Shown here: in pieces, positions 1,835 through 63,326 of the stretch
Position numbering within the stretch: the stretch's first letter is position 1
Layout of the letters: each line of letters starts with the position of its first letter
DNA from: Escherichia phage vB_EcoM_ASO2A
DNA length: 64,000 nucleotides
Sequence record: MZ726793.1
Direction: 5' to 3' (one strand)
The notes under the pieces: generated by a model
What the model saw: the letters and a program-made list of their open reading frames with translations, nothing else
What the model was told of the DNA's origin: nothing
The model's database searches: none
Position numbers and translations under genes: made by a program

Positions 1835-2119
1835 ATGAAAATTACAAAAAGCCTAACTAATTATGCAGCACGTCGCGGATTATGCTTAACCGTTGAAAAC
1901 TTAGGGAAAGAAGACTTTTTGTGTTTTTGGGAGCTTGAGAATGATTGCGAGTGGATGTTTTCTTATTCTATCTGCGAAGATCAAAACGGTTGTTTGTTAA
2001 CCTGGCGCGGTAATATCTATTTACCGGAAGAAATTAAAGAAGAGTTACCAGGTACGATCATGACAGAGAGACAGCTTAAAGAAGTGATCAATTTTGTAGG
2101 GCAAAACATTAAAAAATAA
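1835..2119 (+). CDS. hypothetical protein (94 aa)
   Basis: leader agaagagagaaaaatcATG; track start 1784 overlaps promoter/hairpin. Confidence 0.6.
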   Translation: MKITKSLTNYAARRGLCLTVENLGKEDFLCFWELENDCEWMFSYSICEDQNGCLLTWRGNIYLPEEIKEELPGTIMTERQLKEVINFVGQNIKK

Positions 2120-2120
2120 T

Positions 2121-2183
2121 TTGACAGTAGGCAAACAACGTAGTAAAGTTTATTACATAGAGCGGCGGAATGGTCCACCGCTC
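2121..2183 (+). promoter_or_regulatory. promoter + 5' hairpin cassette, copy 6
   Basis: -35 TTGACA 2121-2126, -10 TAAAGT 2144-2149, tacaTAGAGCGGcGGAatggTCCaCCGCTC from 2158. Confidence 0.55.
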
Positions 2184-2204
2184 ACAACAGAAGAGAAACA
2201 AATC

Positions 2205-2375
2205 ATGATCCCGACTATGTTTTATGTATCGCGCAAAGGTCACAATATTTTTTGGTCTGAAGATTTAAATGAAGCTATGACGTTTGCCCATGATCGTGTT
2301 GCTATCGGTGGCGTTAACATCACTGTAACCGATGAAAACGGCATTGAATACTATAACGGCGACGATGAAGAATAA
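2205..2375 (+). CDS. hypothetical protein (56 aa)
   Basis: leader agaagagaaacaaatcATG. Confidence 0.5.
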   Translation: MIPTMFYVSRKGHNIFWSEDLNEAMTFAHDRVAIGGVNITVTDENGIEYYNGDDEE

Positions 2376-3576: not shown

Positions 3577-3966
3577 ATGCGCAACCTGGTTTCTGTTTCT
3601 AACGTTGAAAAATTTCAATCTTTACAGGGTATCGTTAACAACGTAGCGCCTTTTTTAGTCAACGGCTTGATTGCAAAGATGAAAAATAAACATCATGCGG
3701 CATGGTCTGCTTACTGCTTTGATAATGATGAAAAAGCGGCTGAAATGATGCTAAATATGCTGTTAGACAGTGTAGAATCATCTTTACCGGAAAACATCGC
3801 AGAAGAGATCACCTATCGTTATAATATGGCGATCACTTACCAGGAGGTTGCGCAATTTAATATGATGGACGATGACGAACAACAGGATCAGGAAATGTTT
3901 TGGGAGTATGCTGATCGTCAATCGGCTTTTGATGAAAAATTAGCGATGTATTATAACGAATATTAA
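3577..3966 (+). CDS. hypothetical protein (129 aa)
   Basis: aaaaggtaaatactATG; track start 3541 lies inside the hairpin. Confidence 0.6.
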   Translation: MRNLVSVSNVEKFQSLQGIVNNVAPFLVNGLIAKMKNKHHAAWSAYCFDNDEKAAEMMLNMLLDSVESSLPENIAEEITYRYNMAITYQEVAQFNMMDDDEQQDQEMFWEYADRQSAFDEKLAMYYNEY

Positions 3967-60910: not shown

Positions 60911-60917
60911 ATAACTA

Positions 60918-60947
60918 TTGACAAACGTATCCTTCATATGTTAGGAT
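60918..60947 (+). promoter_or_regulatory. tRNA-operon promoter P1 (CTATTGACAA type, extended -10)
   Basis: TTGACA 60918-60923, 18 nt, TGtTAGGAT ending at 60947; 9-bp inverted repeat ACGTATCCT/AGGATACGT at 60925-60951. Confidence 0.6.
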
Positions 60948-60960
60948 ACGTTCATCAAGT

Positions 60961-61150
60961 GTGGTAACAGGGTCGTTGACTTTTGTTAAGAGGGGCTTGC
61001 ACTGCGGTAGTGTTAGAGACTACTTCTTCAGAGGTTAGCTACCAAAGAGGAAAAGGAATAGTCTCGGCTCAAGAACTTTTACGCTGAAAGTTGGGCTTGG
61101 TCTTAGAGAATGTAGCGGTTCTCTACAATCGTCAGCGTCTCTGTTACCAC
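60961..61150 (+). ncRNA. about 190-nt structured non-tRNA RNA, first transcript element of the tRNA operon
   Basis: 10-bp closing stem GTGGTAACAG (60961-60970) / CTGTTACCAC (61141-61150), extendable by cgttgac/gtcagcg; no ORF; ends 6 nt before tRNA-Met. Confidence 0.4.
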
Positions 61151-61156
61151 ATTTAT

Positions 61157-61231
61157 GGCCCTGTAGCTCAATGGGAGAGCTGTCGGCTCATAACCGATAG
61201 GTAGCTGGATCGAAACCAGCCAGGGCCACCA
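61157..61231 (+). tRNA. tRNA-Met (CAT), CCA encoded
   Basis: acceptor GGCCCTG/CAGGGCC, anticodon loop CTCATAA, T arm GCTGG-ATCGAAA-CCAGC. Confidence 0.85.
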
Positions 61232-61233
61232 AC

Positions 61234-61308
61234 GTCTTTATGGTGTAATGGATAGCACAGGAGTCTTCTAAACTCTTAGTCAAGGTTCGATTCCTTGTAA
61301 AGACACCA
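61234..61308 (+). tRNA. tRNA-Arg (TCT), CCA encoded
   Basis: acceptor GTCTTTA/TAAAGAC, loop CTTCTAA, T arm CAAGG-TTCGATT-CCTTG. Confidence 0.85.
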
Positions 61309-61309
61309 G

Positions 61310-61492
61310 AACATTTTAACATGAATTAGCTCAAGTGATTTGAACCCACTACTGATCATGGTGGCAGAGAATGAGGCAAGTATGTCAGACATTATAAACA
61401 AAGGCCACGGTTATATTAGAAGACATAAATGCTCGAAGAGCACCGTTCGTGGAGAACGGGGTTGGTGGAGTCACCATTCATGGTAAAATGTT
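61310..61492 (+). ncRNA. about 180-nt structured non-tRNA RNA
   Basis: 17-nt closing stem AACATTTTAACATGAAT (61310-61326) / ATTCATGGTAAAATGTT (61476-61492), 16 of 17 paired; internal hairpin CCGTTCgtggaGAACGG. Confidence 0.45.
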
Positions 61493-61503
61493 TTAAAAAA
61501 CTA

Positions 61504-61533
61504 TTGACAACTAACATTATTTTATGTTAGATT
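61504..61533 (+). promoter_or_regulatory. tRNA-operon promoter P2
   Basis: aaaaCTATTGACAA, 18 nt, TGtTAGATT; inverted repeat CTAACAT/ATGTTAG at 61511-61530. Confidence 0.6.
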
Positions 61534-61541
61534 ATAAGTAT

Positions 61542-61632
61542 GGAAGGGCAAATCGACGTGGCGACGAAAACGGTCTTGAAAACCGCCGAGCTTGAAAGAG
61601 CCTTGGGAGTTCGACTCTCCCTCCTTCCGCCA
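61542..61632 (+). tRNA. tRNA-Ser (TGA), type II
   Basis: acceptor GGAAGGG/TCCTTCC, G73, loop CTTGAAA, long variable arm GCTTgaaaGAGC, T arm GGGAG-TTCGACT-CTCCC; D arm atypical in my hand fold. Confidence 0.75.
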
Positions 61633-61637
61633 GATTA

Positions 61638-61723
61638 GGTAGATTGGTGAAATGGTAGCCACGACAGTTTGCTAAACTGTAGTCGGAAACGGCGTGTAGG
61701 TTCGAGTCCTACATCTACCGCCA
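61638..61723 (+). tRNA. tRNA-Ser (GCT), type II
   Basis: acceptor GGTAGAT/ATCTACC, G73, loop TTGCTAA, variable arm GTCGgaaaCGGC. Confidence 0.85.
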
Positions 61724-61853
61724 AGTTCTTTTTAATATAGCTTACTTTAGCAGAGTAAATCTTCGGCAAGTGGCGGTAACCACTTTACCGATAACTCATA
61801 GTTAGTGGTGTGAACACTGGCTATTTTAAAAAGAATTTAAATATTAGTATTTA

Positions 61854-61941
61854 GGTGAGTTAATTCCGTAGGGGTAGCGGGGCAGACTGTAAATCTGTTA
61901 TCATTGCGATTCGGGTGGTTCGACTCCATCACTCACCACCA
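61854..61941 (+). tRNA. tRNA-Tyr (GTA), type II
   Basis: acceptor GGTGAGT/ACTCACC, A73, GCAGA-CTGTAAA-TCTGT as in E. coli tRNA-Tyr; D-arm junction atypical. Confidence 0.8.
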
Positions 61942-61947
61942 AATTAA

Positions 61948-62033
61948 GATGAGTTGGCTGAATGGTTTAAGCGGCGGACTGTTAATCCGTGTTCGAAAGA
62001 ACGATATAGGTTCAAATCCTATACTCATCGCCA
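61948..62033 (+). tRNA. type II (long variable arm) tRNA with GTT (Asn) anticodon and G73
   Basis: acceptor GATGAGT/ACTCATC, D stem GCT/AGC, GCGGA-CTGTTAA-TCCGT, variable arm GTTCgaaaGAAC+gat, T arm ATAGG-TTCAAAT-CCTAT. Confidence 0.6.
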
Positions 62034-62040
62034 GAATTAT

Positions 62041-62117
62041 GGACTTGTAGAGTTAAGGTAAACCCCCAGTCGCCAAGAGGCTTCTGGAATTGCAGGTATC
62101 GAATCCTGCCGAGTCCC
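62041..62117 (+). ncRNA. tRNA-like element without an anticodon loop
   Basis: acceptor GGACTTG/CGAGTCC, D arm with GG, T arm GCAGG..CCTGC (8-nt loop). The anticodon arm is replaced by CCAGtcGCCaagaGGCttCTGG. No CCA. Confidence 0.35.
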
Positions 62118-62123
62118 AGCTTT

Positions 62124-62198
62124 GCTCCTATAGTATAATGGCTATTACAACGGTTTTGTAATCCGTGGATCTCTGTTCGATTCAGAGTGGGAGCACCA
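62124..62198 (+). tRNA. tRNA-Thr (TGT)
   Basis: acceptor GCTCCTA/TGGGAGC, loop TTTGTAA, T arm CTCTG-TTCGATT-CAGAG. Confidence 0.8.
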
Positions 62199-62473
62199 AC
62201 ACAACATTAAGGGCACTGTGATTGATCGTCGTATCCTGTGCACAAGGTCTGTTCGAAAGACAGTGTTCTTAGTATTGTGTTGATCACACAAAAAGAGTTA
62301 CCTGAAACTTGACCGGAGTAGGGTTGGATGGGGCAAAAGAAGAAGCGGCTCTCCCATCGACAGCAACGAAGAATAATATTTGACTTTGGTTTTGTATTAT
62401 TTTAAGTTAGCTTACCGAACGTAGGGCTAGTCACCCAACGGGATACTCGTCACTGTCCCACTCAATAAAACTA

Positions 62474-62503
62474 TTGACAACCAATAGTAAAATGTAGTAT
62501 AGT
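62474..62503 (+). promoter_or_regulatory. tRNA-operon promoter P3
   Basis: aaaaCTATTGACAA, 18 nt, TATAGT 62498-62503. Confidence 0.6.
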
Positions 62504-62524
62504 AAAGATGTAGGGCGTTCTTGG

Positions 62525-62598
62525 TGTAGCGGTAGCATTCCGTCCTTCCAAGTCGGCGGCACGAGTTCGATCCTCGTAGAACGCTCCAAATTATTTAA
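62525..62598 (+). tRNA. tRNA-Gly (TCC)
   Basis: acceptor GCGTTCT/AGAACGC, loop CTTCCAA, T arm ACGAG-TTCGATC-CTCGT. Confidence 0.8.
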
Positions 62599-62678
62599 TA
62601 AAGGGTTGCCAGAAAACTTTCTCTTTTACTCATGGTTTTCTCCTTCTCTCACACCTCTTCTGGTTGCCCTTCATTAAA
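62594..62678 (+). ncRNA. long hairpin RNA with a 43-nt pyrimidine-rich loop
   Basis: arms TTTAATAAAGGGTTGCCAGAA / TTCTGGTTGCCCTTCATTAAA (about 18 of 21 paired); the loop contains TCTCCTTCTCTCACACCTC. Confidence 0.45.
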
Positions 62679-62686
62679 TGATTTAT

Positions 62687-62762
62687 TGGTTTGTAGTGTA
62701 GTCCGGTAGCACACGACACTTTGACTGTCGTAGGTTTGGTTCAAATCCAGACAGACCAGCCA
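62687..62762 (+). tRNA. tRNA-Gln (TTG)
   Basis: U1-A72 acceptor TGGTTTG/CAGACCA, G73, loop CTTTGAC. Confidence 0.8.
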
Positions 62763-62855
62763 TATAACAAAGGTGAGTCACTACCTCAAGTGTGAAGTTA
62801 AAAACGAGGAGCCGCCGAACACTTTCTTTTGCGGTGTACCTTTAGAATGTTATGA

Positions 62856-62932
62856 CGGAATTTAGCTCAGTTTGGTAGAGTGTACGCTTTGGGAGCGTAT
62901 TGTCGCAGGTTCGAATCCTGCAATTCCGACCA
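62856..62932 (+). tRNA. tRNA-Pro (TGG)
   Basis: acceptor CGGAATT/AATTCCG, loop TTTGGGA, T arm GCAGG-TTCGAAT-CCTGC. Confidence 0.85.
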
Positions 62933-62938
62933 ATTAAA

Positions 62939-63012
62939 TGTTTCGTAGTTCAATGGTAGAACCCACGACTGATAATCGTGAGATACAAGTTCGATTCTTG
63001 TCGAAACAACCA
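62939..63012 (+). tRNA. tRNA-Ile (GAT)
   Basis: acceptor TGTTTCG/CGAAACA, loop CTGATAA, T arm ACAAG-TTCGATT-CTTGT. Confidence 0.8.
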
Positions 63013-63014
63013 GT

Positions 63015-63084
63015 TTCCCGTTAGACTTACAGGATAAGAGTTCCACAATTTATTGTGACGCTGGTTCGAATCCAGCACGGGATA
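63015..63084 (+). ncRNA. tRNA-like element without an anticodon loop
   Basis: acceptor tTCCCGT/ACGGGAt and T arm GCTGG-TTCGAAT-CCAGC are intact. The anticodon arm is CACAA-ttta-TTGTG (4-nt loop). No CCA. Confidence 0.35.
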
Positions 63085-63090
63085 CATAAT

Positions 63091-63169
63091 AGCGGGATAG
63101 AGGAGTCTGGTCGTCCTCGCCAGTTTCATATGCTGGAGATCATTGGTTCAAATCCAATTCCCGCCTCCA
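63091..63169 (+). tRNA. tRNA with CAT anticodon (Met, or Ile2 if lysidine-modified), 1:72 mismatch
   Basis: acceptor aGCGGGA/TCCCGCc, loop TTCATAT, T arm ATTGG-TTCAAAT-CCAAT, CCA encoded. Confidence 0.75.
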
Positions 63170-63284
63170 AATATCGCTTGCCAGCGGTATCTTTGAAGAC
63201 CTTGCCTGGTTCCTTCTAAGATGGAGGGGTGCGACTCCTTAACGCACAATTATAATAAAGCATTTCAAATTAACAGTATTTATT

Positions 63285-63307
63285 AGCCTCCTTATTGGAG
63301 GCTTTTT
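63285..63307 (+). terminator. Rho-independent terminator closing the tRNA operon
   Basis: AGCCTCCttatTGGAGGCT + ttttt. Confidence 0.75.
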
Positions 63308-63326
63308 GCTATCTATTGAATAAAAC

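Follow-up and report, generated by a model that had tools for sequence, protein, structure and literature searches.

Analysis of a 64,000-nucleotide (nt) stretch of DNA from Escherichia phage vB_EcoM_ASO2A (sequence record MZ726793.1), hereafter the window, revealed that positions 60918-63308 of its + strand form a single bank of transfer RNA (tRNA) genes with three promoters, one terminator, 12 tRNAs and two tRNA-like RNAs. We consider it probable that this is an early tRNA bank in which self-folding RNA modules are interleaved with the tRNAs and are released by tRNA maturation. Such an arrangement is of a kind already known, because the record of phage T5 annotates eight stable RNAs and phage T4 has rnaC and rnaD; the novelty lies in these particular RNA families and in their spread across coliphage groups. 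The spacer modules (seg1 to seg7) and the tRNA-like RNAs (TLS1 and TLS2) are the following.

60957-61154, + strand: seg1, multi-hairpin RNA of about 198 nt, the 5' domain of the transcript from promoter P1
61309-61497, + strand: seg2, structured RNA of about 185 nt with a closing helix of 10+5 bp
61724-61842, + strand: seg3, cloverleaf-like RNA of about 119 nt with an 18-bp closing helix and three hairpins
62041-62117, + strand: TLS1, with an acceptor stem, a D-like region and a T arm whose loop has 8 nt; homolog of T5 RNA3
62197-62285, + strand: seg4a, long imperfect hairpin of about 27 bp with an inner GUUCGAA loop
62286-62465, + strand: seg4b, spacer with conserved blocks
62589-62684, + strand: seg5, hairpin with paired termini (about 24 bp) and a conserved, pyrimidine-rich 43-nt loop
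62763-62855, + strand: seg6, conserved element; hairpin GAGGAGCCGC...GCGGUGUACCU with a variable apical insert
63015-63088, + strand: TLS2, with perfect T and D arms, an acceptor stem and a 5-bp 'anticodon' hairpin
63170-63250, + strand: seg7, 3' trailer element that contains CUCCUUA; 90% conserved in phi92-like phages

Folding was tested against dinucleotide shuffles, and covariation against controls with slid partners. The initial annotation of this region had ascribed strong long-range stems to the non-tRNA sequence as a whole, and this held for seg1 (z -5.3), seg2 (z -4.1), seg3 (z -3.9) and seg5 (z -5.7), whereas seg4 (z -1.1, unremarkable), seg6 (minimum free energy z -0.1) and seg7 (z -1.9, unremarkable) folded no better than shuffles. 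The closing stems are real and longer than claimed, with 22 bp in seg1 (60957-60979 with 61132-61154), 18 bp in seg3 and about 24 bp in seg5. Comparative covariation, one of the checks proposed along with it, backed the pairing in seg1, seg2, seg3, seg5, part of seg6 and part of the 5' hairpin of seg4, but not in seg7, for which the phi92-like comparison yielded zero covariation. In seg1, where two lineages diverge by 20%, the differences lie mostly at paired positions; compensatory double changes were found in 8 of 66 pairs, and 99.6% of cells were paired as against about 46% in the slid control. For seg2, double changes were seen in 15 of 50 pairs, and 98% of cells were paired compared with about 42% after sliding. 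Covariation in seg3 concerned 6 of 40 pairs, with C-G, A-U and G-C all occurring at one closing-helix position, and a covariance model built for this module scored 132 bits on the + strand and 45 bits on the - strand. Because several G-U pairs are kept and the minus-strand score is much lower, we attribute the pattern to selection on the + strand RNA. The same model gave no extra or diverged copies of seg3 in the window, T4, T5, PVP-SE1 or GAP31. In the phi92-type version of seg5 the stem is rebuilt by about five compensatory pair changes, while the loop sequence UUUCUCUUUU-CUCAUGGUUUUCUCCUUC is kept. The alternation of structured non-tRNA RNAs with tRNAs is hence backed by both folding and covariation in the case of seg1, seg2, seg3 and seg5.

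The manner of these substitutions also bears on whether the spacers encode small proteins, or the minus strand of seg5 a 12-amino-acid (aa) peptide, which we regard as highly improbable. The ETEC-TG, PsgM04F and WPEC records do call 'hypothetical proteins' of 34-57 aa in seg1, seg2 and seg4, and the minus strand of seg5 reads GAAGGAGAAAACC-ATG-AGT-AAA. However, these open reading frames (ORFs) are short and start mostly with TTG or GTG, the substitutions between lineages are paired stem changes rather than codon-wise ones, there is no promoter for minus-strand expression inside a heavily transcribed + strand bank, and in phi92-type seg5 the length differs by 1 nt just after the ATG, so that the frame is shifted and the product has 8 aa instead of 12. 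The small-ORF reading of the spacers was therefore rejected on account of the short ORFs, the frame-breaking changes and the placement of substitutions in RNA stems. The minus strand opposite seg5 (62608-62646) has a perfect Shine-Dalgarno sequence and ATG heading the 12-aa ORF MSKRESFLATLY, which is probably not coding, given the 8 aa and shifted frame of the phi92 type. By coordinate arithmetic the seven spacers initially listed total about 1018 nt of about 2350 nt, so that the non-tRNA share of the unit, put at about 45 percent, stands at about 43%; this sequence had been described as having no ORFs, and those present in the bank are just 25-59 aa long, many of them overlapping tRNAs and most with a TTG or GTG start.

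In all the phages examined, the modules begin and end where tRNAs do, and the homologs of the modules lie between tRNAs with the same geometry as in the bank of the window. Seg1 starts about 3 nt past the predicted P1 start and ends 2 nt 5' of tRNA-Met. Seg2, seg3, seg5 and seg6 each start immediately behind the CCA of the tRNA upstream. The gap to the following tRNA is 11 nt for seg3 (tRNA-Tyr) and 0-2 nt for seg5 and seg6, and what follows seg2 is promoter P2 instead of a tRNA. In a three-way alignment of the bank from the window, phiWec179 and PsgM04F, the flanking protein genes are about 75-80% identical, with a difference at roughly every fourth or fifth base, as against about 93-100% for seg5, seg6, seg7, TLS1 and TLS2; for the three spacers seg5, seg6 and seg7 the identity between lineages is put at about 100%. 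From one phage family to the next, loops and junctions stay invariant, which is more than a spacer alone would call for.

The individual modules differ in how far they have spread. Homologs of seg1 were found in Phapecoctavirus only. Seg2, with the invariant blocks AUUAGCUCA, ACUGAUCAU, GAGAAUGAG and GGUGGAGUCACCAU, has homologs of about 70% identity in Seunavirus (PVP-SE1, GAP31, 4MG and SSE121; Vequintavirinae), where they exactly fill the inter-tRNA gap. Seg3 is 97% identical in the rV5-like phage JES2013 and about 80% identical in the T5-like phages HildyBeyeler, HZ_ZJUN2, phA11 and E22, and it is also present in Certrevirus PBES02 and in phi92-like phages. It is located nearly always directly 5' of tRNA-Tyr (5' of Lys-Tyr in phi92-like phages), in the T5-like phages between a promoter-like TATAAT and tRNA-Tyr, and its first hairpin, CUUACU-UUAGCAG-AGUAAA with the 7-nt loop UUAGCAG, is nearly invariant. 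The variants of this loop (window 61742-61760) are UUAGCAG, UUAGUAG and UUAAUAG, and UAG or UAA is found in every one of them. Pattern scans of IMG/VR for seg2 and seg3 returned almost exclusively the same phage groups, the remaining matches being due to chance. The Rfam scan, likewise proposed at the outset, was run on the whole bank and on single modules, and at both gathering and permissive (E = 10) thresholds it recovered only tRNAs; the spacers have no match at the gathering score and no meaningful one up to E = 10 among the families, GOLLD, ROOL, YrlA, 6S, tmRNA, riboswitches and ribozymes included, and seg1 and seg2 queried singly likewise gave zero matches.

Seg6 has its counterpart by homology between rIII and 30.9 in T4-like phages, with 85% identity to IME339, and T4 itself has a long form of it, an unannotated conserved hairpin element, in its 244-bp rIII-30.9 intergenic region (NC_000866, about 130,541-130,784; 2030-2290, minus strand, of the compared stretch). 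The seg6 hairpin is kept as CCGC/GCGG, CCGU/ACGG or CCAU/AUGG, with three compensatory pairs, and T4-like, phi92-like and phAPEC8-like phages differ in its apical insert, which measures between 5 and about 65 nt. In the tRNA bank of phi92 (3588-3935 of the compared stretch) we found the whole T4-like rIII-30.9 intergenic piece together with a C-terminal fragment of rIII, including a 43-aa ORF in which the ribosome-binding site and ATG of 30.9 are fused to the rIII C-terminus. Because the phi92 bank contains this T4-like piece and the rIII fragment, we conclude that modules travel by recombination among coliphages. The piece is bracketed on both sides by TTTATTGGAG and resembles a recombination or insertion scar.

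Such mobility raises the question of whether the spacers are simply hitch-hiking DNA, footprints of recombination or of homing endonucleases that are conserved through recent transfer only. The 85% identity of seg6 to T4-like intergenic DNA with the rIII fragment adjoining in phi92, the HNH endonuclease genes beside modules in SSE121 and T5-like phages, and the mosaic content among Phapecoctavirus lineages are all in line with this view, but the compensatory substitutions and kept G-U pairs denote selection on RNA pairing, and sequences that differ by 20-30% yet keep the structure are not the outcome of a recent transfer, which makes hitch-hiking a rather remote explanation. The HNH homing endonucleases that adjoin modules in these phages are a likely vehicle for module spread. 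In SSE121 (515-770 of the compared stretch), the HNH homing endonuclease gene comes right after the seg2 homolog.

As for the remaining spacers, a homolog of seg4a with 80-85% identity is located downstream of a tRNA cluster in a lambdoid Klebsiella prophage. In Klebsiella phage ZCKP1 (about 1866-2700 of the compared stretch), an insertion of about 700 bp that encodes an XRE/HigA-like antitoxin lies inside the bank between seg4 and tRNA-Gly. The 'T-arm-like' motif that had been noted in seg7 gave no match to the tRNA model. The CUCCUUA of seg7, which is also the sequence of the 3' end of 16S rRNA, is predicted to lie in the 9-nt loop of a hairpin, and GGAGGGG is found a short way 5' of it. Relatives have an ORF after seg7, and this ORF is deleted in the present phage.

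A route by which the modules could be produced can be proposed. Host sigma70 RNA polymerase would start at the three strong promoters and stop at the one terminator, giving transcripts in which the structured modules seg1, seg2, seg3, seg4a, seg5 and seg6, as well as TLS1 and TLS2, are placed between the 12 tRNAs. The ends of a module would pair into a helix of 15-25 bp reaching from the upstream CCA, or from the transcript start, to 0-13 nt before the next tRNA and, because these helices directly adjoin the tRNA ends, cleavage during tRNA maturation would release the modules too. Cutting at the downstream tRNA would be the work of RNase P, and the upstream tRNA would undergo endo- or exonucleolytic trimming, as in the established maturation pathway of E. 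coli and T4 tRNAs, and the products would be RNAs of 75-200 nt with paired, nuclease-resistant ends, like T4 species 1 and 2 and the T5 stable RNAs. The modules are thus most likely paired-end RNAs freed by the cuts that mature their neighbouring tRNAs; we infer co-transcription, the processing route and the stability of the RNAs from sequence features.

Release by tRNA maturation is compatible with different roles. The modules may act purely in cis, as punctuation for the folding and processing of the precursor, with the released pieces being by-products; their helices would then prevent misfolding of neighbouring tRNAs, offer entry to RNase III or RNase E, and position RNase P. Each module exactly fills its inter-tRNA gap with a closing helix that joins two tRNA ends, the 18-25 bp helices are within the size range of RNase III substrates, and the association of seg3 with tRNA-Tyr and of TLS1 with tRNA-Asn is kept across phage families, as would be expected of such punctuation. 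A purely cis role does not, however, account for loop and junction sequences that are invariant over large evolutionary distances, for the many tRNA pairs of the same banks that are only 2-8 nt apart and have no module, for the T5 tRNA-Tyr, which lacks seg3, or for the annotation of such RNAs as stable species in T4 and T5, and we hold it to be possible but not probable. Because loops and junctions are invariant across families and many tRNA pairs need no spacer, we tentatively favour a trans role, at somewhat short of even confidence, in which the modules would act as accessory RNAs binding factors of the host or the phage, as tRNA mimics and, in the case of seg5, as an anti-translation-start RNA.

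Seg5 is the module for which a target can be named as a candidate. Its positions 62625-62644 are antisense to AGGAGAAAACCAUGAGUAAA, a 20-nt sequence that corresponds to the stretch from the Shine-Dalgarno sequence to codon 3 of gapC, which adjoins cybB in E. coli and encodes a type I GAPDH; the match is perfect in 3829 of 5426 complete E. coli genomes. The reverse complement of the seg5 loop, GAAGGAGAAAACC-AUG-AGU-AAA, is a consensus translation start. Control queries of 137 and 86 nt from two other spacers, seg4b and seg7, gave zero antisense matches in E. coli. By our own estimate, which allows for the number of spacers, the gapC match has a p of about 0.01 and is only suggestive. Apart from gapC, the best E. 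coli match was in a cassette engineered as a reporter, presumably GFP, next to the cat gene of a single laboratory strain, and was set aside. No sense copy of the seg5 loop target was found in phage genomes, either in the phage's own or in competitor mRNA. Like paired-termini antisense RNAs (PTasRNAs), seg5 has a predicted long terminal helix that presents an anti-Shine-Dalgarno/anti-AUG loop towards a candidate target; it resembles in this both the synthetic PTasRNA design and natural stem-loop antisense RNAs.

Several observations weigh against our reading of the modules. The folds of seg4b, seg6 and seg7 are no better than those of shuffles, and seg7 is also devoid of covariation. Independent lineages are few (effectively two for seg1 and two to three for seg2 and seg5), so the covariation counts are modest. 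The tight seg3/tRNA-Tyr and TLS1/tRNA-Asn linkage fits a cis role equally well. Finally, the AGGAGAAAACCAUGAGUAAA 20-mer is found at 54 loci in a set of 185,579 species genomes, many of these in unrelated genomes, as a generic strong translation start would be, and because of these 54 loci less weight was given to the gapC match.

A current reinterpretation sees phage tRNA banks as a counter-defence against tRNA-cleaving immunity (PMC10264068). The present bank may, besides supplying tRNAs, be an RNA arsenal, with trans-acting anti-host RNAs that tRNA processing would mature at no extra cost, seg5 masking translation starts, and TLS1 and TLS2 decoying host factors that bind tRNAs, such as defence nucleases directed at tRNA, a reading that we regard as unlikely. 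Similarly doubtful is the more specific proposal that seg5 is a natural paired-termini antisense RNA directed at host gapC or at strong starts generally. If this arsenal reading were true, the long-puzzling stable RNAs of T4 and T5 would gain a function at last.

TLS1 and TLS2 were assessed with the tRNA model of Rfam (RF00005; gathering score 29 bits). Both align with it end to end, at 20.3 and 25.3 bits, respectively, and hence below the gathering score; ARAGORN called neither, and neither has the 7-nt anticodon loop of a tRNA, so that they fall outside the tRNA family. Where a tRNA has its anticodon arm, TLS1 has a long hairpin that closes in a loop of 4 nt, a 14-nt hairpin standing in the place of the anticodon loop. 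In TLS2, whose fold z is -3.9, the 'anticodon' loop (window 63041-63054) is UUUA, CUUA or CUA in three lineages (4, 4 and 3 nt). A suppressor tRNA was considered for TLS2 on the basis of these loops and ruled out, the loop being merely 3-4 nt. As judged by score and loop structure, TLS1 and TLS2 are unable to decode, and two of the tRNA-like stretches of the initial annotation thus turn out not to be decoding tRNAs.

TLS1 aligns with T5 RNA3 and with a phi92 copy, and in all of them it is positioned directly after tRNA-Asn. Common to TLS1 and T5 RNA3 are the sequence UAGAGUUAAG(G)UAAACC, an AUU linker and an unusual 8-nt T loop, (U/C)AUCGAAU, and the acceptor, hairpin and T stems covary between the two. 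Because sequence, linker, T loop, covarying stems and the position after tRNA-Asn are shared, we assign TLS1 and T5 RNA3 to one family. With YrlA, the bacterial Y-RNA-like RNA, and with canonical tRNAs, TLS1 and TLS2 share an acceptor stem, a D region and a T arm; however, the YrlA model gave just a 21-bit match, which fell on real tRNAs, and the 7-nt anticodon loop is missing from TLS1 and TLS2. We know of no Ro/Rsr-type protein for this phage, and no search aimed at such a protein was made.

The tRNA genes with which the modules alternate are as follows.

61157-61308, + strand: tRNA-Met(CAU) and tRNA-Arg(UCU), by ARAGORN and Rfam
61542-61723, + strand: tRNA-Ser(UGA)-like (61542-61632; odd D arm, sub-threshold) and tRNA-Ser(GCU) (61638-61723), with an 85% homolog in PBES02
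61854-62033, + strand: tRNA-Tyr(GUA), by Rfam, and tRNA-Asn(GUU), by ARAGORN and Rfam
62124-62198, + strand: tRNA-Thr(UGU), by ARAGORN and Rfam
62515-62588, + strand: tRNA-Gly(UCC), by ARAGORN and Rfam
62687-62762, + strand: tRNA-Gln(UUG), by ARAGORN and Rfam
62856-63012, + strand: tRNA-Pro(UGG) and tRNA-Ile(GAU), by ARAGORN and Rfam
63091-63169, + strand: tRNA-Met(CAU), by ARAGORN and Rfam

The count of 12 agrees with the one given initially. It is made up of the 10 tRNAs found in the bank by ARAGORN, tRNA-Tyr (61854-61938), which Rfam adds at 39 bits, and a class II tRNA of Ser(UGA) type (61542-61632) with the anticodon loop CUUGAAA, which scores a sub-threshold 37 bits on the tRNA-Sec model. 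The Pro, Thr, Tyr, Asn and Ser(UGA) tRNAs are swapped or strongly diverged between Phapecoctavirus lineages, and the adjoining spacers are nearly identical. This turnover of tRNAs is cassette-like (window 61854-62198 and 62856-62932), and in phiWec179 a 42-aa ORF stands in place of tRNA-Asn.

Transcription signals of the bank comprise three promoters and an intrinsic terminator.

60918-60947, + strand: promoter P1 (TTGACA, 18 nt, TGtTAGGAT), predicted start at about 60954
61504-61533, + strand: promoter P2 (TTGACA, 18 nt, TGtTAGATT), start predicted about 2 nt upstream of the tRNA that follows
62474-62503, + strand: promoter P3 (TTGACA, 18 nt, TATAGT)
63285-63308, + strand: intrinsic terminator of the bank, the sole one, with 63285-63303 followed by a T run

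All three promoters that had been proposed as nearly identical were found to be so and are of the sigma70 type; P1 and P2 have an extended -10 TG and P3 does not. The 10-mer CTATTGACAA has exactly three zero-mismatch copies in the 64-kb window, at 60915, 61501 and 62471, and one-mismatch relatives of the -35 context occur elsewhere in it, several of them on the minus strand. ATAA, not AAAA, precedes P1. P1, P2 and P3 are all conserved in the diverged relatives phiWec179 and PsgM04F.

The inverted repeats reported at P1 and P2 are both present, with 9 bp at P1 (60925-60951) and 7 bp at P2 (61511-61530), and they overlap the -10 elements. As operators they would allow a phage repressor to turn the bank off later in infection, a function for which this overlap and the symmetry of the P1 repeat, kept in phiWec179 through two double changes, would be suitable. 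On the other hand, the P1 and P2 repeats have no common sequence, P3 has no repeat, and no DNA-binding protein was identified adjoining the bank, the neighbouring ORFs having no recognised domains. Pairing in both repeats is kept in phiWec179 via compensatory and G-T changes and, because the changes include G-T wobbles, an RNA hairpin is preferred over a repressor site: such positions fit a hairpin in read-through RNA better than a DNA site. The evidence suggests that the repeats form RNA hairpins in read-through transcripts, and the operator function put forward for them earlier now appears quite improbable.

The 2.4-kb bank region is 100% identical to that of Escherichia phage MRostami-2023b and 97-99% identical to phAPEC8, ESCO13 and other Phapecoctavirus (subfamily Stephanstirmvirinae), which identifies the source phage, at the level of sequence identity, as a phAPEC8-like coliphage of the genus Phapecoctavirus. 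In ESCO13, an annotated relative, the tRNA bank is placed at the switch between two gene blocks, with DNA-metabolism genes on its left, among them those for an RNA ligase and a phosphoesterase located about 5 kb off, and the late genes for an Rz-like spanin, terminase and portal on its right. The small ORFs that flank the bank match only PHROG families of unknown function and zero Pfam domains, and the flanking small proteins were for this reason dropped as candidate RNA partners. A search of the literature found no description of the RNAs of this Phapecoctavirus bank. The records of five phages with host labels that appear doubtful (Campylobacter phages B15 and C3, Acinetobacter phage ABPW7, Pseudomonas phage PsgM04F and Dompiswa phage TSP7_1) show 80-99% identity to E. 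coli Phapecoctavirus or Justusliebigvirus across the bank region.

Stable RNAs that are made together with phage tRNAs have been a puzzle in T4 and T5 for decades and are still without a function. The present modules are shared among phAPEC8-, phi92-, rV5-, PVP-SE1-, T5- and T4-like coliphages and a lambdoid prophage, and none of them is in Rfam; RNAs of this kind are, then, not oddities of two model phages. The leads that emerge are the tRNA-mimic family of T5 RNA3 and TLS1, the element linked to tRNA-Tyr, and the anti-translation-start loop, and comparative structures with defined boundaries bring the old question within experimental reach.

Structured non-coding RNAs such as GOLLD and ROOL are often found beside tRNA genes in phages or prophages (PMC5737381). 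These are, however, ornate RNAs of 500-800 nt from Firmicutes and other phyla, and neither has an Rfam match here. The analogy with T4 drawn in the initial annotation is apt. T4 species 1 and species 2 RNAs (rnaC and rnaD) are small, stable, co-transcribed RNAs at the end of the tRNA cluster, and rnaC has a perfect T arm at its end, an acceptor-like strand and a fold z of -4.6; their roles are still listed as unknown after 50 years (PMC3014915, PMC9697503). No homology was detected between the modules of the window and rnaC or rnaD, the T4-related seg6 matching another T4 locus, the rIII-30.9 intergenic region. T4 has two such RNAs, whereas the bank of the window has seven spacer modules and two tRNA-like RNAs. 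The further claim that such elements are here more numerous and larger than known overlooked T5, whose record (NC_005859) lists eight 'stable RNAs with unknown functions' among tRNA genes and promoters: RNAI, RNAIII, RNAIV, RNA1 (tRNA-like), RNA2 (tRNA-like), RNA2H, RNA3 (putative tRNA-like) and RNAX. With the class of tRNA-cluster RNAs of T4 and T5 the modules have in common the location in the cluster, the same strand and the lack of an ORF, homology to a named member being confined to TLS1. Seg3 is present in the T5-like phages HildyBeyeler, phA11 and E22 but not in T5 itself, and except for TLS1 and RNA3 no sequence similarity was found between T5 RNAs and the modules. The T5 RNAs are 73-172 nt long, with one of 719 nt, and most have paired 5' and 3' ends when folded; like the modules of the window, they are located between same-strand tRNA genes behind multiple strong early promoters, and T5 RNA3 is the homolog of TLS1, both being placed after tRNA-Asn.

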